A stretch of 64,000 nucleotides of DNA from a virus. The notes beneath the pieces are model-generated. The model made no database searches, was not told the origin of the DNA, and was given only the letters and a program-made list of their open reading frames with translations. Where the stretch lies: the IMG/VR virus record IMGVR_UViG_3300025151_000016, one strand, 5' to 3'. Shown piece by piece: positions 9,146-33,352 of this stretch; the stretch's first letter is position 1; the number at the start of each line of letters is the position of its first letter. The position numbers and the translations under genes are program-made.

Positions 9146-9787
9146 TTAAATTTGACTTAGATTAGCCAGTGTAACGTAAGATCTTGCAGCAGAATCAGTT
9201 GCTGTAGCAAGAATACGAACATTTGCTCCTGAAATATCTACGTCATATGCTACGTGTTCTGAATCATTTGTTGATATTGTTGCGTATTGCGTTGCCACTG
9301 CAGTTGAAGAATTGTTATGTGTAATCAGTAACTCAGTGACCATCCTAGAAGGTCTAGCGCTATCCCAGGCGGTGATAGTTGCCTTTATAGCACCATACGT
9401 AGCTTTAGCATATGATGCGATAGCAGTTTGAGTTATGTTTGTTGTAGTCGCAACTTGAGTATCTCCGCCTCCGCCGATAGCTCCCCATTCTCCGCCAGCA
9501 TAACCTTCAAATGCATTATCTTCTGAATTGTAACGAAGCATTCCATTTACGGGCGATCCATCTCTTTGTGCTTGGGTACCGGACGGAAGCTTAACTGATG
9601 TTGTTCCCGAGAAAGTAATATTACCGGTTGCAGAAAGATTACCGGTTGCAGAAAGATTGCCACCAATACTAGCAGAATCTCCAACTGTCAGTATGCCGGA
9701 AGTCGTAAGAGTTGTTGTACCGGTAGAGTCCTCAGAGGTAAGCCCCGGAGCAACTATCCCATCCGTACCATGTAATACTACTACCAT
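9146..9787 (-). CDS. Tail-fibre-associated structural protein
   Basis: KLPSGTQAQR...GMLRYNS...FEGY...WGAIGGG motif shared with 13757..14149; 18-bp tandem duplication (GNLSAT x2) at 9623-9658. Confidence 0.6.
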   Translation of the reverse strand: MVVVLHGTDGIVAPGLTSEDSTGTTTLTTSGILTVGDSASIGGNLSATGNLSATGNITFSGTTSVKLPSGTQAQRDGSPVNGMLRYNSEDNAFEGYAGGEWGAIGGGGDTQVATTTNITQTAIASYAKATYGAIKATITAWDSARPSRMVTELLITHNNSSTAVATQYATISTNDSEHVAYDVDISGANVRILATATDSAARSYVTLANLSQI

Positions 9788-9807
9788 TGTTTGTCCTCTT
9801 TAATCTT

Positions 9808-9815
9808 TATTTATA
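9808..9815 (-). promoter_or_regulatory. T4-type late promoter TATAAATA
   Basis: Exact consensus overlapping the upstream stop codon, GAGGA RBS downstream. Confidence 0.8.
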
Positions 9816-10314
9816 CGGGTTTCGTTGGCCAATCGGCCTCTTGTAAATTTGGCCAGTTATCATGTGTTGTAATATCACGAAGAGCTTTTCGATATGTTTT
9901 CATCTTAGCTGTCATTGTTACGTCTGACATTCCGGTCCAGTCTGTTTCTACAAGCAATCTATCTCGCTGTGCACGATTAGATTCAGCAGTTGCGGTGTCT
10001 AACGTTGCCTGATACGCGGCTTCTTGTTCTGCCTTACTTGTAGTCTTACCGTCTTTAGTATAGGCAGTAAACATATCTACAGCTACATGATTCTCAACCC
10101 AATTACCTTTAGAGTCTTGTTTAACTCCGTCTCGGATTGATACTTGGTATGAACCTGTAAGTTCTGCTGAAGGCATAGCAAATACTGGATCTAAGTTTAA
10201 TCCGTCTAATGTTGCTTCTTTCCAGACACGAGGTAAAGACACATTAGAAAAATGCGCTCTCCATGCGCCTTGCGATTTAACTTCGCCTGTTGTTCTTTCT
10301 CTATATTCACCCAT
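9811..10314 (-). CDS. Phage tail (fibre) assembly chaperone
   Basis: RDRLLVETDW...YRKALRDI...WP.KP motif. Confidence 0.75.
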   Translation of the reverse strand: MGEYRERTTGEVKSQGAWRAHFSNVSLPRVWKEATLDGLNLDPVFAMPSAELTGSYQVSIRDGVKQDSKGNWVENHVAVDMFTAYTKDGKTTSKAEQEAAYQATLDTATAESNRAQRDRLLVETDWTGMSDVTMTAKMKTYRKALRDITTHDNWPNLQEADWPTKPV

Positions 10315-10341
10315 TCGATTGATCCTTTCTTATGAGTTTGA

Positions 10342-12951: not shown

Positions 12952-12957
12952 TATATA

Positions 12958-13746
12958 TTATCCTAATGCTTGGCCTGCTGTAAATCCATACCAGTTCGTA
13001 CCGCCGTCTCTTGTATAGAACACAAAGACGTCTTTAGCGCTTGCTGTTGCTGTAAGGGTTGGTGCTGTAGCTGCAGGCCAGTCTACAGTTCCTGGCCATG
13101 CTACAGTGTAACCACTTGCTGATCCGTCTTGTATAATCTCAAGGCTGAAGCTGAATGCCGTACCTGATGAAGGCGGGTTACTAAAAGTAAACGTAGTGTT
13201 CTCTGTAAGAGTGTGACTAAAAGCGTTTCCAGCGTGACAGTCCACTGCAACTGCGTTTGAACTTGATGTAACTGCTACATAAGTTTCATTATAACTATCT
13301 GCAATAAATTCACCCGTTATATCAGCACCAACTGAGGTTGTAGCAATTCTTGCAGTGTTATCGTAGTAAAGTGTTGCTGCACCATCAGTAGTAGCAGCAA
13401 TCTTTGTTTCATTACCAGCTGCATTCATTACATTGAATTGATCTGCTTTAATATTTAAATTGCCTGTTCCATTGTCTAAAATTACAGAGTTTGAACCATC
13501 GTGAAAGATTTGCAAATCTGAACTATCACCTAGTACAATCTTATCGTTGTCACCAAACGATGTTGTTGTACCCGCAACTGTAAGATTACCTGTAACTGTA
13601 ACACCACCTGCAAATGTTGCATCCTGTGCGCTATCAATTGTTAAAGCTGTTGTTGAACCATTCGTTTTAATTATAAGACGACCTGTGTTGTCAGCCGTAT
13701 GGACGAGTGCGTCTGTTACTGTTGTTCCTGCTGAAATAATACTCAT
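12958..13746 (-). CDS. Tail-fibre protein carrying the uninterrupted scaffold domain
   Basis: GDSSDLQIFHDGSNS fibre motif; C-term GNAFSHTL...FSNPP...WPGTVDWP..APT...D.FVFYTRDGGTNWYG. Confidence 0.65.
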   Translation of the reverse strand: MSIISAGTTVTDALVHTADNTGRLIIKTNGSTTALTIDSAQDATFAGGVTVTGNLTVAGTTTSFGDNDKIVLGDSSDLQIFHDGSNSVILDNGTGNLNIKADQFNVMNAAGNETKIAATTDGAATLYYDNTARIATTSVGADITGEFIADSYNETYVAVTSSSNAVAVDCHAGNAFSHTLTENTTFTFSNPPSSGTAFSFSLEIIQDGSASGYTVAWPGTVDWPAATAPTLTATASAKDVFVFYTRDGGTNWYGFTAGQALG

Positions 13747-13756
13747 TGAGTTCTCC

Positions 13757-14149
13757 TTAGATTACTACCCACCGCTGACCAGCAGCAACAGTTACACTTA
13801 CACCGTTATTGACAGTAATTGGTCCTACGCTAAATCCGTTTGTTCCTGCAGGAAATACATATGTCTCTGAAGCTGTGCCAGTGTTAGTGTGTATCGCGCC
13901 ACCGGCTTCCTGTCCACCGCCACCAATTGATCCCCATTCGTTGGTGTATCCTTCGAACGCTCCAGCTGTTGAGTTGTAACGAAACATACCAGCTGCTGGA
14001 GAACCGGTTCGTTGAGCTTCAGTACCAACTGGAACTTTAATATGTCCTGTGCTTGAGAGTGTTACGTCTCCAGCTGCTCCTACTGTACCTATGTTTGTGA
14101 GGTTACGGCTATCGTCAATAACCGTAGTATTTGAAACTTTAATTGCCAT
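13757..14149 (-). CDS. Small tail-fibre-associated protein
   Basis: MAIKV..TTVIDDSRN start, PVGTEAQR...GMFRYN motif, ends GPITV..GVSVTV..GQRWVVI. Confidence 0.6.
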   Translation of the reverse strand: MAIKVSNTTVIDDSRNLTNIGTVGAAGDVTLSSTGHIKVPVGTEAQRTGSPAAGMFRYNSTAGAFEGYTNEWGSIGGGGQEAGGAIHTNTGTASETYVFPAGTNGFSVGPITVNNGVSVTVAAGQRWVVI

Positions 14150-14192
14150 CTTCGTCCCCTGACTATTAGCTTTATGTTATTTATATCACTTA
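14143..14192. repeat. 50-bp perfect direct repeat, copy 2 (contains late promoter TATAAATA at 14178-14185, minus strand)
   Basis: Identical to 1591-1640. Confidence 0.95.
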
Positions 14193-14995
14193 GATTTTAA
14201 ATCTTCAATTTCTTGTTTGAGTTCTTTGATTGATTCTATAAGCAATCCAATTAAACCATCATAGTTAACTGCTTTGTATCCATCTATTTCAGATACAACT
14301 TCTGGTGCTATTTCTTCCACCTCTTGAGCTATAACACCCATAGATGCTTTACCATTATTTTTCCAGTTAAATGTAACTCCACGAATCGAATCAACTTTAT
14401 CGAGTGCACTATTAATTTGTTTAATATTATCTTTTAATTGAGAATCTGATGTTGAGTTGAAGTTTGGTGCAGATACGTCGCCTGTAAATGTGGCTCCTGA
14501 AATATTAGCAAGTTTTATCCAGTTACCGCCATGAGCAAAATATCCGTGACCTGTAGCATGAACATGCGCAAACATGCCATGATACGTACTTGCACTTGGT
14601 AAATCACCTTCATTTGAATAAACGTTAGCGAATAAAATCTTTCCTGTCGTAGTGATCTGGTTTGAACCCATATCAAGTGGTTTATTAAAGTTCCACTTGT
14701 CACCACTTGAAGTATACGTTAACGTTGCGCTAGCGCCATTAATTGTAATACCAGCGCCGTCCGCTGCTGCGGCATCACCGGCTGAATCAGCTAAAACAAT
14801 ATTTTTATCGTTTACAGAAAGCGTAGTTGAGTTAATGGTTGTGGTTGTACCATTAACTGTTAAGTCACCAGTGATTATAACATCACCACTAGAATCTTTC
14901 TCCACTTTAAAATTATTCAAATTCGAAAAGTTATTGTCAACTTCCGTATTCGTAAGTGGAGAGCCTTTGACAGCTCGCAGCGTTAGATTAGTCAT
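14186..14995 (-). CDS. Tail fibre with C-terminal peptidase S74 intramolecular chaperone
   Basis: KGSPLTNTEVDNNF N-term; TSDSQLKDNI...GVTFNWK...GVIAQEVE...V.Y.GLIGLLIESIKEL. Confidence 0.85.
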   Translation of the reverse strand: MTNLTLRAVKGSPLTNTEVDNNFSNLNNFKVEKDSSGDVIITGDLTVNGTTTTINSTTLSVNDKNIVLADSAGDAAAADGAGITINGASATLTYTSSGDKWNFNKPLDMGSNQITTTGKILFANVYSNEGDLPSASTYHGMFAHVHATGHGYFAHGGNWIKLANISGATFTGDVSAPNFNSTSDSQLKDNIKQINSALDKVDSIRGVTFNWKNNGKASMGVIAQEVEEIAPEVVSEIDGYKAVNYDGLIGLLIESIKELKQEIEDLKSK

Positions 14996-15023
14996 GACAG
15001 GATACTACCTTTCGGATGTTAGA

Positions 15024-15473
15024 TTAGCTAATTGTAACAGTCCAAGTAATAGTTACTGAGTCGTCAGCTCCTTTGTTAACAGTGCTAAAAACAGTCCTAC
15101 ATAGCATAGTGCCGCTTGATGAAGCATTTAAAACTGCTGCTTCCGTAAGAGCACCTGTACCAGTTCCTGCTGGGAATGATGCGGTGTAAACTATTGTATT
15201 TGTTGAGGGTGCGCCTTCTCCGCCTGTAAGAGCAACTCGTGCTACCTCAGTGCCTAATGCTGTGTTACCAGCTGCAGCTGCAGTATTGTTGGTACCAACT
15301 GCCATGTGCGACATATCTGTAGGTGAGCCAGAATCTGTCATTCTTGCTGCGATATAGACAAGCCCAGTAGTCACGACAAGATTCTTTTCTGTTCGTTCTT
15401 CCTTGACTTTTCCATTCTTATCCGTGACAACTATTTTTAGTTCTCCGGTTGGTTTTAGTGTTTCACTAATCAT
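15024..15473 (-). CDS. Virion structural protein (tail-fibre N-terminal/attachment-like)
   Basis: NLVVTTG...MAVGT...LG.E...GTGALTEAAVLNA..G.MLCRTVF..VNK motif; late promoter at 15514-15521. Confidence 0.55.
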   Translation of the reverse strand: MISETLKPTGELKIVVTDKNGKVKEERTEKNLVVTTGLVYIAARMTDSGSPTDMSHMAVGTNNTAAAAGNTALGTEVARVALTGGEGAPSTNTIVYTASFPAGTGTGALTEAAVLNASSSGTMLCRTVFSTVNKGADDSVTITWTVTIS

Positions 15474-15513
15474 CGGTATCTCCTGTTTATTCTAGTGACT
15501 CAATTATAGTATC

Positions 15514-15521
15514 TATTTATA
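15514..15521 (-). promoter_or_regulatory. T4-type late promoter TATAAATA
   Basis: Exact consensus in intergenic gap. Confidence 0.8.
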
Positions 15522-15533
15522 TATTTATTTTAA

Positions 15534-16853
15534 TTAAAAAGTTCTTGCTACTTTAGCATTATAAGCATTATCTCCACTTAACACAACAAAATCAGCTGCA
15601 AAGTAATCTGTACTTGCAATACCACCGGCTTGTGATATGGCTGCTGAATCAGTAAGTGTTTGTGCAATAGCAAAAACTGGAGATTCTGTCATATTAACAG
15701 TATCTGATGGGCCTTTATTTGTTAATGTAACGAGTGACTCAGCCGCGCTTACGCTATCACTTCTAGCTTTATTAAATGCCAATACATGCGCTTCTGAAAT
15801 TGTAAGTGAATCTGAGAAAGATGTGCCACTGGTTATTACTGGAGAATCAGTTGCAGATACACTGTCTGATACATCTCTTCCTACAGCTAGATCTAGATCT
15901 TCAATAGCTGATGCTGAATCTGCAAAAGTTGGAAGTGATATAGCAAGAGCAGGTGTATCTGATGTAGTACCAGTATCGCCTATAACTTTGCCGATAGCGA
16001 ATGGACCTAAAGATTCTGTTACAGTTTGAGTATCTGAAGGATTTTTACCAAAGCTTATAATATCATTGTCGCTTACAGATGCCGAATCAGCAGCGGGTCT
16101 AGATGTTGCCAGTGCAGGTGTATCTGATGTAGTACCAGTATCAGCAAGTACTTGTGCTAATGAATAGTTAAGTGATTCTGTTATTGTCGCGGTGTCGCTT
16201 GGATTAACACCAATAGCAAATACTAAGCCTTCTGTAGCCTGTGCTGAATCTTGAGGATTAACACCAATGATATATAAAACATCAATGCTTTCAGTAGCCT
16301 GTGCTGAATCAGCTTGTGGAGTACTAAATCCAATAGAAGGAGAATCAACTGCCCTGATTACTATCTCATCAGGAATTTGTGAAAGACTATATGCTAATGA
16401 TTCATTTGCAGAAGCAGTATCCGCCGAGGCTTTGACGAACTGATAAGTAAGACCATCTGGCACTCCAACAAGGTCTTCTGCGTTTGCCGTATCAGCAAAA
16501 ACCTTTTGAGTATTAATATTAGTAACTAAGTCAGAAGCAGTGCTTGAATCACCAAAAATCTTTCCTATGCTTAAGACATGATTCTCGCTGACGCCAGTAA
16601 TATCTGTTATTGCTTTGTTAACAGCAAAAACAAATTGCGCATCAGCTAGTGTAAGATTATCTGCAAAGTATATTTCTAAAACAACGTCAATAAGTTCTGA
16701 CGCTGTAGCAGAATCTGCATATTGCTGTACAACGTAATTAAGATCTCGAAAACTAACATACCGAGATTCTTTAATATTAAATGGCTTTGATTTATTAGAG
16801 GATTTAGTCTTGCCGAATATTGATTGTATTTTGCCGCTGGAGATTATATCCAT
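15534..16853 (-). CDS. Acidic repeat-rich virion protein (~19-aa D-S/T repeats)
   Basis: Recurrent (A/S)D(S/T)xxxxE/D units; exact 29-bp internal repeat 15949-15977 / 16114-16142. Confidence 0.6.
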   Translation of the reverse strand: MDIISSGKIQSIFGKTKSSNKSKPFNIKESRYVSFRDLNYVVQQYADSATASELIDVVLEIYFADNLTLADAQFVFAVNKAITDITGVSENHVLSIGKIFGDSSTASDLVTNINTQKVFADTANAEDLVGVPDGLTYQFVKASADTASANESLAYSLSQIPDEIVIRAVDSPSIGFSTPQADSAQATESIDVLYIIGVNPQDSAQATEGLVFAIGVNPSDTATITESLNYSLAQVLADTGTTSDTPALATSRPAADSASVSDNDIISFGKNPSDTQTVTESLGPFAIGKVIGDTGTTSDTPALAISLPTFADSASAIEDLDLAVGRDVSDSVSATDSPVITSGTSFSDSLTISEAHVLAFNKARSDSVSAAESLVTLTNKGPSDTVNMTESPVFAIAQTLTDSAAISQAGGIASTDYFAADFVVLSGDNAYNAKVARTF

Positions 16854-16857
16854 TTGA

Positions 16858-17193
16858 CTACATACTTGTAACTGCTGGCGATACCGTTACAATTCCTTCA
16901 ATGACTCTATATTTTTCACCAGCATCATTTTGAATTAAAACATCAAAAACATACCTGCCGGCTTTAATTAAAGCTGTTTGCTCGTCTGTAAGACTAAGTC
17001 TAATTTGTCCTGCGTTTGTAGTTGTTTCAGCTGTGAAAGTTGCGGACACTGAAGAAGACGCGTAGTTCTTTTTCACCTGTGCAGCAAACGTATGTCCGGA
17101 TAAGTCATAAGTTGACCCGTCATTAGATGTTAGATTTACTAAATATCTAAAGGTTGAACCTTGCTCAATTTCAATGTCTTCGTAAAGGGCCAT
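16858..17193 (-). CDS. Small baseplate/tail adaptor-like protein
   Basis: IEQGSTF...DLSG....AQ.KK...G.I.LSLT..QT..IKAGRYVFDV...RVIEG.VTV.P.VT, a family typical of T4-like structural regions. Confidence 0.6.
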   Translation of the reverse strand: MALYEDIEIEQGSTFRYLVNLTSNDGSTYDLSGHTFAAQVKKNYASSSVSATFTAETTTNAGQIRLSLTDEQTALIKAGRYVFDVLIQNDAGEKYRVIEGIVTVSPAVTSM

Positions 17194-17207
17194 ATCGTCA
17201 CTCTTTC

Positions 17208-17861
17208 TTAATCTAAGTCAACAACTGCTTTTATCTTTTGTATTTCTTTATGCTGTTCCTGGATAACCTGGATGAGGAAAGGAATGATTTGTGTATAAGA
17301 AACAGATTTAACGCCTTCGTCATTTGTTGAAACAATATCTGGTAATATTTCTTCTACATCTTGAGCAATAACACCATAAGCTTTATTTCCATTATCTTTC
17401 CATGTAAAGCTTACCGGTACAATTTTATTAATAACGTTAATTGCATCAACTAAAGATTCAATATTATCTTTCTTGTTTTTATCTGATAAAGAATTATAGT
17501 CAGTTGAATTTAGTTGACCCGTTGACGGATTAAAGAATAGCTTCGTACTCGAAACATTTAACGCGTTATCTGAACCAGATGTAATATTTGTAAGTGTAGG
17601 GTAGAAAGAAGCATTAGTTGCTGAGTCGTCTGCAATACTTGTATTCGCAGCGAATCCACCTGTACTTATTGTTAAGCTTAAATAATCTGAATCAATGATT
17701 CCTTTTACATAATCCGAATCAATTGAGTTGAGGGCTGAAACTAGATTACTTTTGGTCGGTGTTGTAAGTTGAATAATGTCACCGACGTCGGATCCGACTT
17801 TATTAAAGTCAGTTACCCACGCTCCAAAAGTATCTAATAGACCAATGCTTGTGACTGCCAT
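17208..17861 (-). CDS. Short fibre protein with peptidase S74 chaperone domain
   Basis: DTFGAW...N N-term; LSDKNKKDNI...PVSFTWK...YGVIAQDVE. Confidence 0.8.
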   Translation of the reverse strand: MAVTSIGLLDTFGAWVTDFNKVGSDVGDIIQLTTPTKSNLVSALNSIDSDYVKGIIDSDYLSLTISTGGFAANTSIADDSATNASFYPTLTNITSGSDNALNVSSTKLFFNPSTGQLNSTDYNSLSDKNKKDNIESLVDAINVINKIVPVSFTWKDNGNKAYGVIAQDVEEILPDIVSTNDEGVKSVSYTQIIPFLIQVIQEQHKEIQKIKAVVDLD

Positions 17862-18085
17862 TATCGTTTCTCTACTAGTTGATGAAGTAGTTGTTTAATT
17901 TCACTCATATCATTCTTTAGAGAAGCAACTTCTTCTTTTATAATTTCTGTTTCATCATCTTTTCTTTTCCTCGCAGCCTTTACAGCACGAGCTTGTTCAA
18001 TTTCATTACTATTTATATTCACGATAGCACCGGACCTTGCGTCTCTAGCTAATGACCGGTGCCCTTCTACTGGTATAAATTTCAT
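17861..18085 (-). CDS. Conserved small coiled-coil protein
   Basis: VEGH..L.RD..SGAI.N...LK.DM.EIK.LL; overlapping start/stop coupling on both sides; internal TATAAATA at 18010-18017. Confidence 0.6.
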   Translation of the reverse strand: MKFIPVEGHRSLARDARSGAIVNINSNEIEQARAVKAARKRKDDETEIIKEEVASLKNDMSEIKQLLHQLVEKR

Positions 18086-21000
18086 TATGTAGCCAGTGCA
18101 ATTACTCTTAAGTCTTGAATGACAGGAACTTTTGCACTACTTGTTGATCTAAATACAATCTTCAATTGATATGTTGTAAATGGTGTAAGTGTACCATTTA
18201 ATCCACCGACTAAGTAACGATACTCTCTGAAAATGTTTGGATTCTCGTCGGACGGTACTGAGTTTTCAGGATTAACTAAAGTGTAGTTTACATCACGAAT
18301 GTTTGTACCTTCATCAGCAGTTCTAAAATAAACTTGGAAGTCAGCAACAGAAGGTTTATTTGCAGCAATTAAGATACGTAAACCAACTGCAGTTTCTGCA
18401 AGTGAGATTGGAGTTGTAATGTGTTTAGCTAAATGCGAACCACCATCTGCATCAGTTTCATTTACAAAGATGAGAGGTGTGTTAAATCCAACCGTAGCTC
18501 TATCAGAATCTTGTTTATCAATTAAGTTATTAAATAAGCTAAGTGATGTACGTTGCATGTCTATAACCGGAGACACATTAACATTATTCGTGGAGAGACG
18601 AAGATTTATAGTTGCTGATTTAGCACTGATGTTTGCGGTTTCAACTACTGAATGACCAATCATTTTTGGTGCAGTTGCTATATTATTCGTATTGATAGCC
18701 AGTGAAGAGAACGCAGTATCTTTTACAAATCTAGTCTCAGTGCCAGCAGGTGATCTACCAGAAGTAAATTTACCAAATGCATTAAGTCTTGTTCCAGCCG
18801 AAGGAATCAAAGTTTGTACGTTTGGACTTACTACATCCCATAATACGTTACGAGTAGCTTCTACACCTGATCCACCAGCAACTATTGATGACGTGGCTGA
18901 GGAGTCGGCATACACTTTATATCCAAACTGATCTGGATGTGCAACTATTCTATTGCCCGTTATTGAAGAACCTAACATACCCGCAAAGGAACCAGCAGAA
19001 TCTATACCACTAAAGTTAACTGTATCACCTGAATCAAAACCATGATACGGATGACTTACTGTAAATATATTTGATCCTGAGTCAAAGTTAAACGGATCTG
19101 CAACTAATTCTCTTCTTGGTACTTGAGTATTTTCAAGAATTACTTCAGCTTCTTGATGCGAGAATCTTGCTTTAAATAATCTGAATGTCATATCTTTTGT
19201 TTGATCGGCTGACCATGTTCTACCATTTTGAGATTTAAACAAAGATCCTAATAATGGCTGGCGTGTAATACGTTTTTCGGTTGAACCAATAATGAATTCA
19301 CCAGGTTCAGCAACATAAACTGTGTAGTCAATTGTATCTGAAAGTAAACATAATGCATATTCCTCACCACCAGCGAGATACACTGGTTCTTCAAATACAA
19401 AGTCTGTACCATTTGCTAACATTGAAGCTTCTGTATTGCTTGGAACAACTGTAACTTGGTTCGGTGTTAATACTCTTAATCCACCAGGAACTGCTGTGTT
19501 TGCAGATGGGTGACCGTTAACCATTGGTCTTATTTCCAAAGCAACTGGAGCCGGGTTAGCACCACCAGAAACATCTGGTTTCGATGCAAAGTATACTCTT
19601 GCTTTTGTTAAGAATATCCCAGTAGTTTCTGCTACAAAGAATGATTGCGCAAGTGGATCTTTACCACCGGTACCACCACGATTTGTGACAGGTTCTGATG
19701 ATCCGCCACCATCATCTGGATCATCAGGCACTGTAACTACAGGAGTGTTAGTAACCACAGTCGATGTGTCTACAACGACTGGATCTGGTCTAGGTGGTGG
19801 AGGTGGAGGAGTAGTGTCTACTACTGATCTTTCGCCACGTACCGTAATTACTCGAGTACTTTGAATTGTTTGTTCAACTGTTTCAATTACACCATTTGCT
19901 TCATAAAATCCAGATGCCAAGGATGTAGAGTTTGCTGCTCTAGCTGAGTTAGCATTTGAAAGTCTAAACTCTCTACGTCCAGTTCTAAATCGAAGAGCAT
20001 TCGTGTTAGGAATAAAGAACGAACCTTCAATTACACCATTTGCATCAGATGTTAAAGATGTAGCACCGTCTGGGTGTGCTGTTGTATTTTGAAATCTATT
20101 ACCGAAATCTTCAGGATCATCTGACATACGAACGAATGTTTCTTCGCGAACAAAGTTATTAACATCTGTTTCGTCAAAGAAAGCAAAGTATTGCTGATTA
20201 GGTGTAAGACCAAACGCTCTAAAATGAATCATTCTAGATCTCATAAATGGTATGATAGCAACATCAACCACTCTTTCACCTACTACTTCACGAATCGTCT
20301 CATCACTCACAACTCTATCAGTTGTAGTGGTTTGAATAAATCCTTGAGAAGTTGTTTCGGTTGCAAACGTTGTTCCAGTTAGATCTTCTGAAGCTTCAGC
20401 TTGACCTTGCCAGTTCCATTGCCATTCGTTAAATAAGAGTGCGTTATCAGCAGCAAGTCTGTTTCCGCCATCAACTGCTCGTGGTGCAGTGAGTTCTGTT
20501 TCTCTCCACTCGTCTGATGCAGGTGAAAGTTCAATAACACCTTCGTTAATTGATACTGCAAATGGATTAATATTTTCTACGCCAGATGCTTCATCTTGAA
20601 AGATAAATTCAGCATCAGTATGAGCGATGTAGATATTATCACCCTTCTTAACTGCTTGAGTACTTAAATCTGAATCGTAAATTAAACGTACATTAGATTG
20701 AATAGCTTGAGGTCTTAATACTTTTGCTCTTGGATCAATAGCAGCAGAGTATACAGGATCTCTAATATCTGAGAATCTATGGTCTGCAAAGTTATCTGCT
20801 AAGAAACCTGCTTTAGTTCTTGGCAGTCCCGAAGAGTCAAACACTTGAAGGGTGTTTGTGTTAATCTCAAGTAGGTTCAGTGCAGTAACTTCTTCAAGGG
20901 TATTGATTCGCTTATCTAGCTGACCAATGTCTTTCATAGTGTATCGTTTATTATCAATAAGTTGAGTACCTAAGTCAGAATCATTTAATGTATTTGCATT

Positions 21001-23289
21001 TAAAGTAACTTTATATAGTTCTATAGCATTTGATGGTGTCTGTGGAAACTGTGGAGTAAAGTCTGCCGCACCTTGAATTAATTTAAGGTTTGCTTCCGTA
21101 TCAACTACTAGTTTATCTTTACGACCTAAGTAGTATGTTGCATCAAGCGTAATTAAATCTGTGTTCTTTGGAAGTGAATTAACTTTAGCAGTAGCACCAG
21201 AGAATCCAGTTCCAGCATCATTAACTCTTGGACGGAAGTCTAATACATCTCTGAGTTGTACAATATCACCATTAGCAAGAGTATGTGATGGAATATCTGC
21301 ATAGTTAATTGAATATGAGTTGACAGAAAAGAAGTCACCAGCACCATGTGCAAAGTGTCTAAATCTTGCAAACACATTTCCTGAAGGTACACCACGTCCA
21401 CTCTTAACTATAAGTTTACCTAAATCATAAAAGTTATCTCTTTGACCGTTATCAAACCTAAACGTAGATGTTAGATCATCACCATTTGAATCTATAGCAC
21501 GGATTCTTGAAACATCGAAGATGTCTGCTTTACCAAGATTTAAGAATTTAAGGCCAGCTCCATCTGAGTCTATTGTGCCTGTTACTGTAGTTTCGGTAAG
21601 TGTTTTTGCTCTTGATGTAGCAGCTGATTTATTTACAAACGCTAGAACTTCAAGGTTTGAGCTCGCTGCTCCTGTACCAGTAATTGTTGCTGTAGTTGTA
21701 CCAGCACCAGATATTGTAACTGCACTTGAAATATTTTGACCCGATGAGTCAATAGCAACTACCCAATCAGAAAGTCCTGCCCAGGTTTCTCCACCAGCTA
21801 ATAATCCTGAACCAAGAGAAGCGTTACCGGCACCGTCAGTTGTGATAGTAAATCTTTTTTGTGCTTCGTATGAAATGTCGGCAAGTGTTTTAGGTCTTGT
21901 ATTTGGAAGAGCAAAGAATAAATCATTGTTCGAAGCATCATTCAATACTGCAACATTGTTTGAAAGAACAAGGTTACCATAGTTAGCTGAGTCTGCAGCA
22001 ATACTTTTTACTGATCGGAAAGAGTTATTACCAGACATTTGTATATCGAATAAAGATAATTTATAAAGTACACCATCTTCTTCTACATTTCTAATTTTTG
22101 CAGTACCGATTGTAGTACCCTGGTTTGCAGCAGAATCTCTAAGATTCCATTGCTCCATTACATTTACATTTGGAGCACCTACTAATGAATCTACTTCAAT
22201 AAAGTTTCCATAGTTAGCCGCAACTACTTCATTATTAATTGTAGATGATGCCGTAGGTTTTTGAAAACGTATCTTTGTATGCTTATTGATAGCTGCTCTG
22301 TAACCATTAATATATGCAGTACCTTCACTTACATCAGCAATTAAATGTGTTGTAGCAGAATCTTCATCAAACTTAAGTTTAAAAGGGCGAACGATATAGT
22401 TACCTGATTCTTCTTTAGTACGAAGAGCCATGACTTCATTTATCTCATTATAACCAGAAGTTGCAGTAGCTTCATCGACAATCACAGAATTTTTAATCTC
22501 AGCAAGATAAACAAACATCTCATCCGAATCAACATTTGCTTCATCAATGAGTGTTAAACGAATTCTATATCTATCTGCACCAGGCGCTGAAGTGTTTGGT
22601 ACATCACCCTGGTTATCAAATAAAGCATTATCGTCAGTAGAAGTTACAACATCTTCAACTGCTTTAAATCCAATTGTGCCAGTAAAAGACGGAGAATACT
22701 TTTGTATGATTAATGATTGAGCATCCGCGAATACAAAATGGCCTTTTGCAAAGAAATCTCCACCAGCAATAGAGAAGCGTGTACCTCTACCAATTGCAGG
22801 ATTTGATGATGTGTTTGTTGTTTGAACTGTAAGTGTATTCGTTCCATCTGTTATGTTTTCACCGGGTGTCAGTCTCAACACTGCAGATGCAGATGACGCA
22901 TCACCAAGATATTGTACATATAAAGTTGCAGGATCAGATCCTGAAATTGCAACAGTTTCAAGAACCTTTACTCTTACGTTTGAAGATGCGCCAGTAAATA
23001 TATTTCCAACTATGGAACCTGATGGAAGAGCATTTGAAGTTGTGTTTAATTTTACAAATTCATAGTTTGTATTTAAAAGTGGTCCGCCTGGATTAACAGC
23101 AGCGCCTTCATTAAAGATGTTACGACCAAAACGCGCAATCTCTCTTTGGATGATAGTTTGCATCTGTGTTAATTCACGAGCCTGTAATGCTTTACCGCTG
23201 TTAAATAGAATTCTATGATAGTTATCACTATCTGCAAAATCATCTTTGTACGTGGTTGCGAATATATTTTGTGTTACTTTGCTGACCAT
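18085..23289 (-). CDS. Large baseplate/tail structural protein (VrlC / DUF4815-like)
   Basis: Y.DDF....YHRILF..G.ALQARELTQMQ N-term, RYTMKDIG.L..RI..LE, GFLADNF, DPLAQSF, GSLFKSQNG.TW...Q..D; follows gp8. Confidence 0.8.
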   Translation of the reverse strand: MVSKVTQNIFATTYKDDFADSDNYHRILFNSGKALQARELTQMQTIIQREIARFGRNIFNEGAAVNPGGPLLNTNYEFVKLNTTSNALPSGSIVGNIFTGASSNVRVKVLETVAISGSDPATLYVQYLGDASSASAVLRLTPGENITDGTNTLTVQTTNTSSNPAIGRGTRFSIAGGDFFAKGHFVFADAQSLIIQKYSPSFTGTIGFKAVEDVVTSTDDNALFDNQGDVPNTSAPGADRYRIRLTLIDEANVDSDEMFVYLAEIKNSVIVDEATATSGYNEINEVMALRTKEESGNYIVRPFKLKFDEDSATTHLIADVSEGTAYINGYRAAINKHTKIRFQKPTASSTINNEVVAANYGNFIEVDSLVGAPNVNVMEQWNLRDSAANQGTTIGTAKIRNVEEDGVLYKLSLFDIQMSGNNSFRSVKSIAADSANYGNLVLSNNVAVLNDASNNDLFFALPNTRPKTLADISYEAQKRFTITTDGAGNASLGSGLLAGGETWAGLSDWVVAIDSSGQNISSAVTISGAGTTTATITGTGAASSNLEVLAFVNKSAATSRAKTLTETTVTGTIDSDGAGLKFLNLGKADIFDVSRIRAIDSNGDDLTSTFRFDNGQRDNFYDLGKLIVKSGRGVPSGNVFARFRHFAHGAGDFFSVNSYSINYADIPSHTLANGDIVQLRDVLDFRPRVNDAGTGFSGATAKVNSLPKNTDLITLDATYYLGRKDKLVVDTEANLKLIQGAADFTPQFPQTPSNAIELYKVTLNANTLNDSDLGTQLIDNKRYTMKDIGQLDKRINTLEEVTALNLLEINTNTLQVFDSSGLPRTKAGFLADNFADHRFSDIRDPVYSAAIDPRAKVLRPQAIQSNVRLIYDSDLSTQAVKKGDNIYIAHTDAEFIFQDEASGVENINPFAVSINEGVIELSPASDEWRETELTAPRAVDGGNRLAADNALLFNEWQWNWQGQAEASEDLTGTTFATETTSQGFIQTTTTDRVVSDETIREVVGERVVDVAIIPFMRSRMIHFRAFGLTPNQQYFAFFDETDVNNFVREETFVRMSDDPEDFGNRFQNTTAHPDGATSLTSDANGVIEGSFFIPNTNALRFRTGRREFRLSNANSARAANSTSLASGFYEANGVIETVEQTIQSTRVITVRGERSVVDTTPPPPPPRPDPVVVDTSTVVTNTPVVTVPDDPDDGGGSSEPVTNRGGTGGKDPLAQSFFVAETTGIFLTKARVYFASKPDVSGGANPAPVALEIRPMVNGHPSANTAVPGGLRVLTPNQVTVVPSNTEASMLANGTDFVFEEPVYLAGGEEYALCLLSDTIDYTVYVAEPGEFIIGSTEKRITRQPLLGSLFKSQNGRTWSADQTKDMTFRLFKARFSHQEAEVILENTQVPRRELVADPFNFDSGSNIFTVSHPYHGFDSGDTVNFSGIDSAGSFAGMLGSSITGNRIVAHPDQFGYKVYADSSATSSIVAGGSGVEATRNVLWDVVSPNVQTLIPSAGTRLNAFGKFTSGRSPAGTETRFVKDTAFSSLAINTNNIATAPKMIGHSVVETANISAKSATINLRLSTNNVNVSPVIDMQRTSLSLFNNLIDKQDSDRATVGFNTPLIFVNETDADGGSHLAKHITTPISLAETAVGLRILIAANKPSVADFQVYFRTADEGTNIRDVNYTLVNPENSVPSDENPNIFREYRYLVGGLNGTLTPFTTYQLKIVFRSTSSAKVPVIQDLRVIALAT

Positions 23290-23302
23290 GTTTTAATAAC
23301 TC

Positions 23303-24625
23303 TTATAGTTGTACAATAATTTTAATGTCTTGTAGTTCTCCAGCTGATCTTGTAACCGCCGAGCGATTATCAACATAAAGAACCTCACCACTGTATCTAT
23401 TTATTGTCGCAGGTTGATCTGAATCGAGTGTGGCAGAACCTGTAACCGTAGCTCCTAATGCGTTCTGAGCAGTTAATGATTCTCCAGCTTGGAATGTTTT
23501 AAATCCTGATGTTTCTGTTTGATGATAAAATACTCCGGCTGCTGAATCAGCAGAAGTTACATAAGCTTTTGCTCCAGATGTGGCACCAACCACAAACGTA
23601 TCATTTGTAAATGCTGTTGCACCACCTTGGAATGTTAATTTACGAAGTGTTGAACCAGCGTTACCAGTAAAGTCTGAGTCGGTGGCTTTTATCTTTGGAT
23701 CACGTATTAATCCCACTTGTCTAAAATCTTGATCAAGTAATAATGCACCATTCTCATCAGCATCTGGTCTACCGTTAAACATAAGTGCACTTGATCTTAA
23801 ATCATTACGAGGATCTTTACCAATACCACCTGGAGTAGATAATATTGCTCTTGCTGAAGCTGCACCTGTTGAGAAGCTTACGTCAGCAAAACTATATCCA
23901 GATCCACGATTTGTCATTTCAAGCTTTACGACTTGACCGCCTGATATTGTAGCAGTCGCTTGTGCGGAATCTCCATCTCCAGTAATTGTAACTGTAGGTG
24001 TACCAGAATATCCTGATCCACCACCAGTCACAGCTAATCCTACAATCTCACCAGCAACTGCAGCATTTTGAACGTTTAACTGTAAAGTTTCAAGAGGATT
24101 TGACGCAGAGTCTAATAATTCTACTGGTTGAAAGTTGGCAGACAAGAATCGATTTGCTTTTAGAGCAGTGATTGAATACAAGTATTTCCATACATATCCA
24201 TCAGCAGTTGTAAAAGGTGTAGTTAAAGTGCCAGTTGGTTCAATCGTAGAAGTTACAGCAGCACCAGCTGAGTTTTTACCCTGTTGCAAGCAAATATAAA
24301 TTTGATTGGCATCTGTTTTTACATAGTAAGCATTTGACGGATAACTTGAAAAGTTATCGTCATAAGCGCTATATATTGAACCAGATGACCAATTGTAACG
24401 GGGAACAATATAAGAAACATCTTGTATTTTTTTAACGCCCTGTAATGATCGTCTAAATAAATCGATTGTTCTTGCTGATTGAACAGGTGTTACAACGTTA
24501 TCTGAATCATCCCATAGTTCGGAACGACCAAGACCAACGTAGTATTCGCTACCTGCGCTATCAAAGTCAGATTTTATTTCTGCAAGAAGATCTCTTTTAA
24601 GTGTATCAGTAATAATTGCTGGCAT
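23303..24625 (-). CDS. gp8: Baseplate wedge subunit gp8
   Basis: VPRYNW..G..Y..YDD, Y.CL, EPT, DGYVWKYLY, FRQVGLI.DP, SGEVLY.DNR..VTR....DIKIIVQL. Confidence 0.85.
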   Translation of the reverse strand: MPAIITDTLKRDLLAEIKSDFDSAGSEYYVGLGRSELWDDSDNVVTPVQSARTIDLFRRSLQGVKKIQDVSYIVPRYNWSSGSIYSAYDDNFSSYPSNAYYVKTDANQIYICLQQGKNSAGAAVTSTIEPTGTLTTPFTTADGYVWKYLYSITALKANRFLSANFQPVELLDSASNPLETLQLNVQNAAVAGEIVGLAVTGGGSGYSGTPTVTITGDGDSAQATATISGGQVVKLEMTNRGSGYSFADVSFSTGAASARAILSTPGGIGKDPRNDLRSSALMFNGRPDADENGALLLDQDFRQVGLIRDPKIKATDSDFTGNAGSTLRKLTFQGGATAFTNDTFVVGATSGAKAYVTSADSAAGVFYHQTETSGFKTFQAGESLTAQNALGATVTGSATLDSDQPATINRYSGEVLYVDNRSAVTRSAGELQDIKIIVQL

Positions 24626-24635
24626 ATTGTATCTC

Positions 24636-25571
24636 TTACGTAATTGTTAAGAAGTTGTCTGAATCACCAAATAAGTGCCAATTGGAACCAGTCCAAATGC
24701 ATTCAGCAGCTCCATTTTGGCTGAGTGTGAATGATGTACCTTGACCAAAGCTTGTAGGTGTAACTGTCGCTGCACCAGTATTAATATTTACAAACCTTTT
24801 AGATTCACCTACAACTACACCATTTGCCATTGTCATGGTCAAAGAACCAGTTGAGTTGAATAAAGTCAAAGGAACTAACAAAGAAACTGCACCAGAAGAT
24901 GTTTTTGTTTCTGATGAGTAAGCAACTTTACGTGTATGGCGAATAGCACCAGTACCTTTAGCTGCAAGATCTAAATTTATATTTGGATCATCACCTACTG
25001 CTGCTATGATTGGTGATCCTGTCGTAGCGGCATTTGTGATTGAAATATCATTAACTGCTGATGATGTGGCTGTAAAGCGAATTATCTCTGCGCCATTAGC
25101 ATCATTGATACCAGTATTAACGACTGGTGTACTTAATGTAGGTGATGTCAAAGTTTTATTTGTAAGTGTATCGGCTGTGGCTCTACCTACAAGTGTATCA
25201 GTTGATGTTGGTAATGTCAAAACTCCAGTATTTGATATGGTTGAAATAACTGGTGCAGTCAAAGTTTTATTTGTAAGTGTTTGAATTGCTGTAGTTAATA
25301 TTACATCTCCTGATGAATCTGGAAGAGTAATGGTATTATCTTTTGTTGGATTTGTAACACCTAATGTTGTTTCATGAGCATTAGCGCTATCGCCTTCAAA
25401 TATAATTCCAGCGGCTGTAAAACCTACGTTAGTAGATAAAGTAGCACTGTCTCCACCTAACTTTTCGTAAACTTCTATAAAGTTTTGATTAATCTTTTGA
25501 GCTGCATCGCGGAGCGTATCACCATCTCTGGCGTTTGCCGATGTGCCTCTACTAATCGCTTGTCTTGTCAT
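24636..25571 (-). CDS. Baseplate wedge/tail-fibre connector, gp9/gp10-like N-terminus
   Basis: GTSAN..DGDTLRDAAQKINQNF.EVY motif; TLTNKTLT repeats. Confidence 0.65.
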   Translation of the reverse strand: MTRQAISRGTSANARDGDTLRDAAQKINQNFIEVYEKLGGDSATLSTNVGFTAAGIIFEGDSANAHETTLGVTNPTKDNTITLPDSSGDVILTTAIQTLTNKTLTAPVISTISNTGVLTLPTSTDTLVGRATADTLTNKTLTSPTLSTPVVNTGINDANGAEIIRFTATSSAVNDISITNAATTGSPIIAAVGDDPNINLDLAAKGTGAIRHTRKVAYSSETKTSSGAVSLLVPLTLFNSTGSLTMTMANGVVVGESKRFVNINTGAATVTPTSFGQGTSFTLSQNGAAECIWTGSNWHLFGDSDNFLTIT

Positions 25572-25595
25572 GTTAGAATCCGTTTTTCTTTACAT

Positions 25596-25603
25596 TATTT
25601 ATA
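25596..25603 (-). promoter_or_regulatory. T4-type late promoter TATAAATA
   Basis: Exact consensus in intergenic gap. Confidence 0.8.
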
Positions 25604-25611
25604 ATAGATTT

Positions 25612-26574
25612 TTATGATATTTGAAGGGCATAGCCATCAGAATCACTATCCCAGAATTCATTTCTTGCTTGGTCTGTTGTTTCAACTGTATTAGACATTC
25701 TCATTGCAGCTGGTACAGTTGCTGCACTGTCTTCATCGAATGTAAATCCATCAGTAATCATAGTATCTTTAATGTTATTGTACATCGCAGCTGCTTGTTC
25801 GATTGACATAGTCTGATAAGAAGCAATCTGTTCGCCTATTGTAAATTTAACTTCTGAATCTGCAATTATTCCAATACCCGCCATTTCAGCATCAGCAGTT
25901 AGTGAAGCTAAACCAGTAGCACTAAACAATGGATCAGCAGAATCAGCAAAATTATCAGGCATGGCATTTACATCAAGATCACCAACACCAACTATTAGTG
26001 TTTGTGCACCGAGAAAAAATCCAGCAGGATGTACAAATGCTTTATATAGTTCTCTCCAAGTTGCAATTGGTATTTCCGATTTTACAAGAATAGAAAGAAT
26101 CTGATTTAGTGCGCCATCTTGAATAACTTTTTGATTTTCAAAACCAATTTCAGATTCACCTACAATAAATAAGTCTCGTTTCGGAAATGAAATTTCAACC
26201 TGTGAGTTAAAAAAAGCTCGAAAGAAACCTTCCGATGAATATAAAGAACCTTTGACTCGATAAAACTGTGATATAAGTGATGCTGCAAATCTTGGTTCTA
26301 AAAAGAAATTCTGATTTAAGATTCCTTGACCGAGTTCTTTTAAAATATTATCAAGAAAACTAATACTAGTGTCTTGAACATCACGAACATCATACATAGC
26401 ATGAATTGCTGATGCAAAATTAAATGTTGCGTCTGAATCCATAAATTCATAATATTTATCAAGAAACGTGATAAGTGTCGGATACTCTGATAGATAGTGT
26501 TCAGGTAAGACTTCGCTTACTTTACTTTCTCTAAAATTAAGAGGCTTTCTATCAAAGTCCGTTAAAGTTTTCAT
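25612..26574 (-). CDS. gp7: Baseplate wedge initiator gp7-like (short form)
   Basis: LP....EYP....FL..YYEFM, FYRVKGS, W...YK..VHPAGF; lies between gp6 and gp9/gp8. Confidence 0.65.
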   Translation of the reverse strand: MKTLTDFDRKPLNFRESKVSEVLPEHYLSEYPTLITFLDKYYEFMDSDATFNFASAIHAMYDVRDVQDTSISFLDNILKELGQGILNQNFFLEPRFAASLISQFYRVKGSLYSSEGFFRAFFNSQVEISFPKRDLFIVGESEIGFENQKVIQDGALNQILSILVKSEIPIATWRELYKAFVHPAGFFLGAQTLIVGVGDLDVNAMPDNFADSADPLFSATGLASLTADAEMAGIGIIADSEVKFTIGEQIASYQTMSIEQAAAMYNNIKDTMITDGFTFDEDSAATVPAAMRMSNTVETTDQARNEFWDSDSDGYALQIS

Positions 26575-28403: not shown

Positions 28404-28404
28404 G

Positions 28405-28848
28405 TTATCTTAACCTTGTTATTGTTGTTTCGAATACAACAATTTCTTCTGTATTGATTACTTGAAATTCAAGAGTAATCTGAACATTATTATTATCCAA
28501 GTATGATTGAACTTTTAAACTACGTACTGTCGCTCTAGGTTCATAATTTTCAATTGCTTGCCTGATTCTAATATTAATATCTTCCGCAGTTTCATCATCA
28601 GCCAGTTCAAACAAGAGTCCTTGAACACCTGCACCGAATCTAGGTGCAAATGGTTTTTCATTAAAGTCAGTAAGAATTAAATTTTTAATTGCTTGTTTTA
28701 CTGCCGCAGCTTCAGTCTTTTTATATACATCACCACTTGGACGATTTGCAAACGTCAGGTCGATATCTTTATAAATTTTATTTCTTGTCGTAACGAGTGC
28801 CTTTGCTGCAAGGTTACCGTCTTCGACTGAAAATGCTCTACTGACCAT
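28405..28848 (-). CDS. gp25: Baseplate wedge subunit gp25
   Basis: YKDIDL.F...AVKQAIKNL.LT...EKPF.P.FG...LFE...I...I.NYEPR. Confidence 0.9.
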   Translation of the reverse strand: MVSRAFSVEDGNLAAKALVTTRNKIYKDIDLTFANRPSGDVYKKTEAAAVKQAIKNLILTDFNEKPFAPRFGAGVQGLLFELADDETAEDINIRIRQAIENYEPRATVRSLKVQSYLDNNNVQITLEFQVINTEEIVVFETTITRLR

Positions 28849-28871
28849 AAGATTCTCTTATTCTTTCGTAT

Positions 28872-28879
28872 TATTTATA
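28872..28879 (-). promoter_or_regulatory. T4-type late promoter TATAAATA
   Basis: Exact consensus upstream of gp25. Confidence 0.8.
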
Positions 28880-28884
28880 ATGAT

Positions 28885-30846: not shown

Positions 30847-31469
30847 TATGCAGTTCCTTTTTGTCTTACAGCTTCAGCAAGAAGTTCTGCTACACTTAAT
30901 GATTGATCAGGATGCGGTGTAACGAATATATGTGCATCAAATTTATTATTGCAGTATTCAACCACGTCAAATCCTGGATCTATTTTGTTATTTGGATCTG
31001 TGTCATTATGACCAAATGCCTGTCCATATGGAAAAGCTTTGAAAAAAGAATCCATGAACGTATCAAATGTTTTAAACTGTGCATCTGTCAAGCTATCAGC
31101 AGAAGCATGTCTTGAATTCAAAGCAACAGCTTGATAGCCACCGAGTCTTGATGCTTCTTCTGATGTTAAATTAATACCACCAACAAACGCTATACCAATT
31201 GAATGTTGATTTCTTCTAAGCGCATGAGCTCCTTGTTTATTAATGTCTCTTCCTCGTTGTAACGAACCATCTCGTAAAATAATAAAATGATAACCTATTT
31301 CATTGAATCCACGATTTACATGTGCACGATTTATCTGCTCTGAATTTATATCTTGATCTATAAAGTTTGCAGTCCAATGTACAACAACTTCTGTGATCTC
31401 ACGTGTAGCTGAAACAAGTGTAGAATCAAGTTCTTCTTGTGTTTCAATATAACTAAATTGATCTGCCAT
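30846..31469 (-). CDS. N-acetylmuramoyl-L-alanine amidase (T7-lysozyme/Amidase_2 type)
   Basis: VVVHWTA, H..RGF..IGYHF.I.RDG..Q.GR....GAH....N..SIGI.FVGG, GHND...K.DPGFDV. Confidence 0.88.
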   Translation of the reverse strand: MADQFSYIETQEELDSTLVSATREITEVVVHWTANFIDQDINSEQINRAHVNRGFNEIGYHFIILRDGSLQRGRDINKQGAHALRRNQHSIGIAFVGGINLTSEEASRLGGYQAVALNSRHASADSLTDAQFKTFDTFMDSFFKAFPYGQAFGHNDTDPNNKIDPGFDVVEYCNNKFDAHIFVTPHPDQSLSVAELLAEAVRQKGTA

Positions 31470-31478
31470 AGTATCCTC

Positions 31479-33343: not shown

Positions 33344-33352
33344 GTTATAATC

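Follow-up and report, generated by a model that had tools for sequence, protein, structure and literature searches.

A lineage-specific Asp-Ser-(Ala/Asp) motif in the outer virion proteins of uncultured marine T4-like phages: a candidate site of serine modification

Introduction

Maf enzymes are soluble, cytoplasmic glycosyltransferases that put sugars on many Ser and Thr residues of a surface-exposed structural protein before that protein is assembled. The autotransporter heptosyltransferases TibC and Aah, which are GT9-like, also work in the cytoplasm and hyper-glycosylate Ser residues at the turns of the beta-helix repeats of AIDA-I and TibA. Glycosylation of mycobacteriophage virions by phage-encoded glycosyltransferases was reportedly found by Freeman et al. 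in 2023 (cited in PMC11256854). The baseplate and fibre proteins of T4-type phages assemble in the cytoplasm. Here we describe a short motif, Asp-Ser (DS) followed mostly by Ala or Asp (DS[AD]), in the outer virion proteins of an uncultured marine T4-like phage. The phage is represented by a 64,000-nucleotide stretch, hereafter called the window, of the IMG/VR record IMGVR_UViG_3300025151_000016; the window is part of a 99.6-kb viral contig and also holds a cluster of glycan genes at 53.3-62.4 kb. Within one lineage the motif is enriched in outer virion proteins and avoided in those of the inner baseplate and hub. We tentatively regard DS with a small or acidic residue after it, in most cases Ala or Asp, as a lineage-specific tag under selection, for which Ser modification by way of a small Maf-like protein of the cluster (53339-53935) is the best candidate explanation. 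To our knowledge, no short sequon that is enriched and avoided on a genome-wide scale has been described before.

A precedent for such an acceptor sequence is SdgB, a soluble enzyme that glycosylates a minimal DSD peptide (PMC8561734). In the O-GlcNAcylation of staphylococcal Ser-Asp adhesins by SdgB and SdgA, as in the phage, Ser is flanked by Asp and many sites lie on a surface, fibre-like protein; DSD is indeed found 15 times in the DS-rich proteins of the window where 1.8 are expected. SdgB differs in being a GT-B enzyme with a DUF1975 insert, and Pfam scans revealed no DUF1975-type gene in the cluster, the rest of the genome not having been scanned for it. It acts on extended stretches of pure SD repeat in a disordered stalk, whereas the phage sites are single DS[AD] motifs in folded loops or in repeats of 5 to 10 residues, and DSA is as common as DSD in the phage, unlike in the SdgB targets.

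Only one sequon for O-glycosylation has been defined in bacteria, the D-(S/T)-(L,I,V,T,A,S,M) of Bacteroidota; it is used on non-cytoplasmic proteins only, is enriched proteome-wide in the targets, prefers hydrophobic residues and rejects Gly (PMC12871550). The phage motif resembles it in having three residues, with Asp preceding Ser and Ala accepted third. However, Bacteroidota transfer is periplasmic and en bloc and accepts Thr, while DT is depleted in the phage clade, and Asp and Gly in the third position, which the Bacteroidota system does not accept, are common there.

Like the mycobacteriophage enzymes, the phage transferases considered here would act in the cytoplasm, on structural proteins of the phage itself. 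In mycobacteriophages, however, the transferases are encoded within the operon of late structural genes and act on the termini of capsid and tail-tube proteins, and no sequon is known; here the genes at 53.3-62.4 kb lie outside any such operon, ~27 kb away and behind an early-type promoter, and capsid and sheath are unenriched. Maf of Magnetospirillum (PDB 5MU5; PF01973, MptE-like) is both the best fold match of the protein encoded at 53339-53935 and a member of the family that this protein weakly matches. Maf has ~600-630 residues with flanking domains, whereas the phage protein comprises the core domain only (198 residues); Maf itself has no defined sequon. For the tandem DSAxI repeats seen in the fibres of relatives, the action of TibC and Aah on AIDA-I and TibA serves as a working analogy, although the enzyme family (GT9-like) differs; no homologue was seen in the phage, no search aimed at one having been made.

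Results

Asp-Ser enrichment in seven structural proteins of the window

The late structural genes occupy bases 1 to ~41,900 and lie mostly on the minus strand. Fibre paralogues are followed by a VrlC-like protein, gp8, a gp9/10-like protein and the wedge protein at the gp7 position, and then by gp6, gp25, the parts of a split gp5, gp53 and gp48. A preliminary description of the window had drawn attention to DS pairs in seven of these proteins, and its counts proved exact. All seven are encoded on the minus strand. The 213-residue fibre-related protein (9146..9787) contains 5 DS among a total of 11 Asp (1.2 DS expected), three of them DSA. In the 439-residue protein at 15534..16853, which belongs to no Pfam or PHROG family, ~12 copies of a DSxSAxE/DxL-type repeat bring DS to 12 (5.5 expected), with six DSA. 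Next comes a 217-residue fibre (17208..17861) with a C-terminal S74 intramolecular chaperone (PF13884) and 3 DS, the sequence IDSDY occurring twice at its N-terminus. The 1734-residue VrlC-like structural protein (phrog_358; 18085..23289) has 17 DS against 9.7 expected, ten of which are DS[AD]. The baseplate wedge protein at 23303..24625 is a member of the gp8 family (phrog_438, E 3.7e-84; PF09215 is precomputed on most of 120 homologues), and 7 of its 32 Asp are followed by Ser (3.3 expected), always as DS[AD]. The remaining two are a protein with a gp9/10-like N-terminal domain (PF07880, weak match; 24636..25571), in which 4 of 17 Asp precede Ser (1.6 expected), and the baseplate wedge subunit at the gp7 position (PF23786; 25612..26574), with 6 DS against 2.3 and a WDSDSDG loop. 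Also as described earlier, the chaperone at 1651-2220 has two DSDG loops that are missing from its paralogue at 9811-10314.

When the seven proteins were pooled and compared with within-protein shuffles, DS was observed 54 times against 26.0 expected (observed/expected ratio, O/E, 2.07; z 6.2), ranking first of 400 dipeptides, so the enrichment noted by eye withstands shuffled controls. The reverse pair SD showed a mild rise (38 vs 25.9); DT (24 vs 26), TD, ES, DG and NS were at or under expectation, and DD was likewise not enriched. Among all tripeptides, DSA (22 vs 2.7) and DSD (15 vs 1.8) were the two most over-represented, and DS[AD] together reached 37 against 4.7, ~8 times chance. The same residues in other orders (DAS, SDA, SAD, ASD, DDS, SDD) occurred 1 to 4 times each, the exception being ADS with 10. 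Omission of the repeat protein at 15534-16853 left DS at 42 vs 20.5 and DS[AD] at 31 vs 3.4.

Local clumping of composition is ruled out as the source of the signal by the lack of an excess of reordered tripeptides and by block shuffles that preserve local composition: with blocks of 8 to 40 residues the expectation for DS was 26-29, and 0 of 1000 shuffles reached 54. Ser codons that follow Asp match the overall usage, as do the Asp codons of DS pairs; the signal therefore acts at the protein level and no nucleotide motif explains it. A cause at the DNA level, such as GANTC sites, is excluded by this normal codon choice together with the unenriched ES. A search for Pentapeptide-repeat or other Pfam families among the DS repeats gave no match. 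In a selection-aware scan, we also scored each of the 400 dipeptides in every stretch of 1 to 15 neighbouring genes of the contig. The top-scoring block for DS spanned 12958-26574 (59 vs 29.8), with a score that 0.3% of shuffled contigs reach; blocks of the dipeptides GT, FD, GK and IS outscored it because of the repeats in the fibre paralogues.

The sole distant relative seen of the 439-residue repeat protein is a 384-residue protein of a related contig (G004; 24% identity), which has 14 DS against 6.0 expected.

Distribution of the motif over the virion

Sorting of DS[AD] by virion part revealed a marked contrast. The block at 15.5-26.6 kb together with 9146-9787 accounts for 37 motifs (4.7 expected), and the three proteins encoded immediately upstream of the window, whose assignment to the neck rests on gene order, have 5 where 0.4 are expected. 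The counts are 12 vs 7.1 for the distal fibre paralogues, 5 vs 3.1 for the head, sheath and portal block, 1 vs 3.1 for the inner baseplate and tube block, and 2 vs 4.5 for the non-structural genes. The DS-enriched proteins are thus those of the places where fibres attach, namely the baseplate rim, the neck and the proximal fibres. Capsid, sheath, portal and the distal fibre paralogues show no clear DS enrichment, so the pattern is not one of the whole virion, and a glycan coat over the entire particle is not indicated.

The inner baseplate and hub block (gp6, gp25, gp5C-like, amidase, gp5N-like, gp53, gp48 and others; 26571..36589, minus strand) contains 9 DS against 16.4 expected; gp6 has 2, and gp25 and a 653-residue protein have none. 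In the window alone this shortage is weak (z -2.0), and the earlier statement that the inner hub lacks DS gains its strength from the lineage as a whole, as shown below.

In an AlphaFold2 (AF2) model of gp8 (predicted local distance difference test score, pLDDT, 85.5), the DS sites lie mostly at strand ends, in hairpin turns and in loops. Some DS sites, for example WDSDSDG and IDSDG, are textbook DxDxDG calcium loops.

Enrichment and avoidance are properties of one clade

The nearest phage in GenBank is C48C1, whose gp6 is 42% identical and on which a literature search yielded no relevant paper; Pelagibacter phage HTVC008M and the Methylophilales Melnitz phages come next. Further relatives, given G numbers here, are contigs taken from IMG/VR, among them G003 (IMGVR_UViG_3300017748_000002) and G020 (IMGVR_UViG_3300020182_000062).

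The same DS excess was found in these IMG/VR relatives and in 120 database gp8 proteins of 32-98% identity. Each gp8 of the clade has 5-10 DS where ~3 are expected, and DS[AD] is about ten-fold over expectation; DSN and DSG are also common in relatives. Across the 120 gp8 homologues DT stands at ~0.5 of expectation, a shortfall larger than the DS excess alone would produce. Pooled over the clade, the gp7-like, gp8 and gp9/10-like proteins have 1332 DS against 567 expected (O/E 2.35), the most enriched of 373 dipeptides, whereas the inner proteins (gp6, gp25, the gp5 parts, gp53, gp48 and neighbours) have 222 against 448 (O/E 0.50), the most depleted of 378. On the sister side the ratios are 1.03 for outer and 0.91 for inner proteins, with middling ranks. 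Kinship of the pooled sequences inflates z-scores and leaves the ranks and the sister-group contrast unaffected. Altogether the pattern was reproduced in more than 200 orthologues of 32-60% identity.

No DS excess is seen in the gp7, gp8, VrlC and fibre orthologues from HTVC008M, Melnitz-3, Syn9, T4 and Aeromonas phage 25. The folds themselves therefore do not require DS, and a general property of the gp7, gp8 or VrlC fold is ruled out by these five outgroup phages. In a tree of 118 gp8 sequences (FastTree, midpoint root, so that the direction of change is not established), the DS-rich proteins form essentially one clade (94 of 97 rows), and the sister side with HTVC008M, Melnitz and G014 is DS-poor.

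Conservation of the gp8 sites was analyzed in 88 homologues with less than 55% identity. For five of the seven sites in the window, a DS is found within 4 columns in 50-88% of the homologues, which indicates retention at the level of the loop; the exact column is kept well only at site 360 (74%) and partly at site 172 (47%). Seventy-six alignment columns hold DS in some member, with ~8 DS per homologue. At many of these columns Ser alternates with Gly and Asn, and the residue after DS is Asp, Ala, Asn, Gly or Ser. In the fibres of relatives the motif forms tandem IDSAYIDSAKI-type repeats with a period of 5 or 10; the extremes are a 599-residue protein with 32 DS and a 1440-residue protein with 37 DS[AD]. 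C48C1 retains a DS[AD] excess in two outer proteins (15 vs 3.2 and 5 vs 0.8).

A nested lineage has lost both effects

L148 and its relatives (72-100% gp8 identity) are nested in the DS-rich clade, and in them both the enrichment of the outer proteins and the avoidance in the inner ones are gone. Their gp8 has 0-1 DS against 2.9 expected and their gp6 has 6 against 4.2, and no other protein of the locus is DS-rich. Relatives of L148 at 55-59% identity show an intermediate pattern. Enrichment and avoidance have been lost together on two long branches inside the clade, that of L148 and, in part, that of C48C1. No replacement sequon was found in the L148 lineage. As a further observation, the outer proteins of this lineage look slightly DS-poor (gp8 as given; fibres 0 vs 3.1).

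The glycan-gene cluster and its promoter

The variable part of the cluster, genes of no recognized function included, spans 53932..62433 on the minus strand. In order of position, it holds a weak GT-A match (53932-54627) and two GT25 genes (54578-55911), followed by a weak sugar O-methyltransferase match (55911-56486), a class I aldolase-like protein (56483-57331), a GT8-like protein with a DxD motif (57774-58592), UDP-galactopyranose mutase (glf; 58580-59605) and a methyltransferase (60267-60866), all on the minus strand. A sigma-70-like promoter (TTTACA, 17 nt, TAGAAT with TG) lies upstream of the cluster at 62443..62471 on the same strand. All 12 exact matches to the T4-type late promoter (TATAAATA) fall outside the cluster (1626, 9808, 14178, 15514, 18010, 25596, 28872, 36493, 37009, 48107/48111 and 53183): nine precede structural genes on the coding strand, two form a palindromic pair at 48.1 kb, and one lies inside the gene 52869-53303. 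Directly upstream of the cluster promoter, at 62832-63530, a PhoH-like ATPase (PF02562, E 5.6e-47) is encoded, a position kept in many relatives.

We determined the presence of the cluster genes genome by genome in contigs of 45-156 kb. The DS-rich genomes were the window, G001, G003, G004, G008, G009, G010, G012, G024, G025, G026 (complete) and G031; C48C1 was classed as partly DS-rich, and G014, HTVC008M, Melnitz-3 and Syn9 as DS-poor. The cluster turned out to be modular. The aldolase-like gene and the neighbouring 57273-57605 are confined to the closest relatives, while glf, the GT8-like gene and the methyltransferase genes are present in some genomes and absent from others. As a marker of the motif, glf fails because DS-rich G008 (87% complete), G009, G010 and G012 lack it and DS-poor Aeromonas phage 25 has it. 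G008 and G009 also lack the GT8-like gene; the methyltransferase gene 60267-60866 is missing in these two and in the complete G026, and 59602-60273 in G026; 55911-56486 fails in at least one informative genome. The GT-A gene has a 36% identical homologue in DS-poor HTVC008M (record 124379-125002), which implies that parts of the cluster are older than the DS trait. All long contigs of DS-rich phages carry GT25 genes, and G014, HTVC008M, Melnitz-3 and Syn9 lack them; GT25 too fails as a marker, because C48C1 has none. A kdsB-type cytidylyltransferase was found in no genome searched. The motif is limited to a clade in which a glycan-gene cluster is present as well. Attribution of the motif to the glycosyltransferase, glf and methyltransferase genes, as first proposed, is mostly unsupported, since the named genes vary between genomes and do not track the motif. 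A 2026 paper ties phage glf to DNA glycosylation (PMC13326640).

Some further features of the cluster and its relatives were recorded. The two GT25 proteins weakly match phrog_61, a phage profile of 689 positions annotated as 2OG-Fe(II) oxygenase, which hints at a GT25-oxygenase fusion in some phages, as in collagen hydroxylysine glycosylation. In G003, where a thymidylate-synthase-family gene was confirmed, an island of ~26 genes at ~52.9-79.4 kb separates the VrlC-like genes from a DS-rich fibre of 1097 residues; it encodes at least 13 radical-SAM proteins (one with SPASM) and a carbamoyltransferase, and the window contig has nothing similar. Radical-SAM enzymes were rejected as writers of a modification because the window contig lacks them.

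A Maf-like protein is the cluster member that best tracks the motif

The constant member of the cluster is the gene at 53339..53935 (minus strand), which encodes a 198-residue Maf/sialyltransferase-like protein. Every DS-rich genome tested has a homologue, as does C48C1, and G014, HTVC008M, Melnitz-3 and Syn9 have none; no other cluster gene is present in all the DS-rich genomes tested and lacking in the DS-poor outgroups. The gene is also intact in G020 of the L148 lineage. Among 50,697 GenBank phage records, C48C1 alone has a homologue. In IMG/VR, the best 80 matches are all at 61% identity or more.

An AF2 model of the protein (pLDDT 86.5) was best fitted by residues 271-507 of the Maf flagellin glycosyltransferase 5MU5_A in VIA-align (Z 11.0; root mean square deviation 3.6 over 165 of 198 residues), followed by SteA, a Campylobacter sialyltransferase and archaeal MptE. 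The predicted structure is therefore consistent with an MptE-like/MAF_flag10 catalytic fold. Foldseek on the same model returned only weak CstII matches. At the sequence level, the match to PF01973 (E 0.038, 14.2 bits) is under the Pfam cut-off of 34.6, so that membership of the family is not established by sequence, and a profile search against PDB sequences found nothing significant.

Discussion

Because the proteins of the inner baseplate and hub at no time face the outside of the cell, their avoidance of DS must arise in the cell or during assembly, and the joint disappearance of enrichment and avoidance in the L148 lineage points to one shared cause. A requirement of the folds would be common to the outgroups and would give no reason for the inner avoidance. 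The simplest reading is therefore that some factor acts in trans and recognises Asp-Ser on late proteins of every kind. On loops that face outwards such recognition would bring a benefit, and at buried interfaces it would do harm; the tag would be retained in the outward-facing loops and repeats of the outer baseplate, the neck and the proximal fibres and eliminated from the proteins of the inner baseplate and hub. The best fit is a modification of the Ser hydroxyl; a partner that docks on the tag, or an enzyme of the host, would also be compatible. The idea that the motif is a modification site, put forward in the preliminary description, is borne out as far as recurrence in non-homologous outer proteins, loop-level retention, inner avoidance and a clade with a glycan cluster are concerned, and has the L148 lineage against it. 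We consider it the best available explanation, unproven and with somewhat less than an even chance of being right.

The reader would most likely be a soluble enzyme of the infected cell that acts on the Ser hydroxyl. O-glycosylation may be started by the clade-specific Maf-like transferase, the best candidate writer, albeit one with a clear counter-example, and the glycan may be extended by a variable set of phage functions (GT25, GT8-like, galactofuranose supply, methyltransferases). A conserved initiating enzyme combined with variable extending transferases would explain why the clusters differ between genomes. The donor sugar could be supplied by the host. In its full form the proposal is that, in a large clade of uncultured marine T4-like phages, a DS(A/D) sequon directs cytoplasmic O-glycosylation by a mini Maf-like initiator and fast-changing extenders, and that some lineages abandoned it; we regard this full form as possible rather than likely.

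Several observations weigh against modification by the cluster enzymes. G020, at 44.8 kb the longest contig of the L148 lineage, keeps an intact 211-residue Maf-like gene with conserved motifs, two GT25 genes and a GT-A gene. Retention of these genes without the motif means that the candidate enzymes are at most necessary and not sufficient, and that they may serve another purpose: either another factor, of phage or host, has been lost in the L148 lineage, or the main job of the cluster is a different one. C48C1, which retains DS[AD] in two outer proteins, has no GT25. GT8 and GT25 are typical lipo-oligosaccharide families, and the cluster is preceded by a sigma-70-like promoter of the early type and lacks a late promoter of the T4 type. 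The association of motif and cluster rests on essentially one origin on the gp8 tree. As for the Maf-like protein, the sialyltransferase (CstI) and SteA folds are within ~1.4 Z of the Maf match, and the flanking Maf domains are missing, the protein being 198-235 residues long in all 11 aligned homologues. PF02348 (CMP-sugar synthetase) was detected in 0 of 10 related or outgroup genomes, the window's own contig not being among them. Finally, Ser alternates with Gly and Asn and the sites are mostly hairpin turns, as expected of ordinary turn residues, and the motif of the relatives' fibres belongs to a tandem repeat of 5 or 10 residues.

These last points lead to the strongest alternative, a purely structural one, in which Asp-Ser followed by a small residue is a turn or capping element of beta-hairpins and a fibre repeat preferred by the lineage, nothing is attached to the Ser, and the cluster remodels, for example, the lipo-oligosaccharide of the host. 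The placement of the gp8 sites at strand ends, turns and loops, the Ser/Gly/Asn alternation with following residues as in type I turns, the IDSAYIDSAKI-type repeats, the repetitive nature of the 439-residue protein of the window itself and the persistence of transferases in the L148 lineage without the motif are all in line with it. It leaves unexplained, however, why DS is the most depleted dipeptide of the inner proteins and why this depletion vanishes together with the enrichment; in addition, the orthologous folds of five outgroup phages manage without DS, and the other turn-forming pairs DG, NS and DD are not enriched. We judge this structural explanation unlikely on balance, and still a serious competitor.

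More doubtful, in our view, is that the tag is read by some other factor: a host cytoplasmic enzyme (a kinase, glycosyltransferase or acyltransferase), a clade-specific docking or decoration protein, or calcium bound in loops, with a change of host or the loss of a partner leading to loss of the pattern. Such a factor would account for the joint loss on the L148 branch and partly on the C48C1 branch while L148 still has phage transferase genes; WDSDSDG and IDSDG have the form of calcium loops, and the enriched proteins sit where fibres attach. On the other hand, no candidate kinase or partner was identified, DSA as the commonest form cannot bind a metal through its third residue, and calcium binding gives no reason for avoidance inside the baseplate.

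A general O-glycosylation system of a Bacteroidota host acting on the virion through D-(S/T)-x, the analogy first drawn for this motif, is very improbable: DSA, which fits the published sequon, makes up 22 of the 54 sites, but 15 are DSD, DT is at expectation in the window (24 vs 26) and halved in gp8 relatives, Asp, Asn and Gly, none of them accepted by that system, follow Ser in the clade, virion proteins assemble in the cytoplasm, and the nearest cultured relatives infect Pelagibacter and Methylophilales, which are Proteobacteria. The restriction of that system to exported, non-cytoplasmic proteins (PMC12871550) argues in the same direction. Least credible of all is chance, or an artefact of choosing proteins after the motif had been seen: the seven proteins were indeed picked post hoc and other dipeptides also form strong blocks, but so few shuffled contigs match the score of the DS block, and DS[AD] is so far above expectation and so widely reproduced in orthologues and database gp8 proteins, that we give this explanation next to no weight.

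Even if the motif were only structural, it would be a clean case of an unusually strong, lineage-specific dipeptide bias in need of explanation. The pairing of outer enrichment with inner avoidance also offers a general, purely computational route to protein-modification codes in viruses that have so far gone unrecognized. Should the glycosylation proposal hold, it would be the first case of a phage whose virion glycosylation is encoded by a sequon, and DS(A/D) would be only the second O-glycosylation sequon defined in the bacterial world. If the tag does mark a modification, abundant ocean phages would decorate their host-contacting parts with self-made glycans at predictable positions, target sites would be readable straight from metagenomic sequence, and adsorption, host range, protease resistance and the persistence of the particles would be affected.

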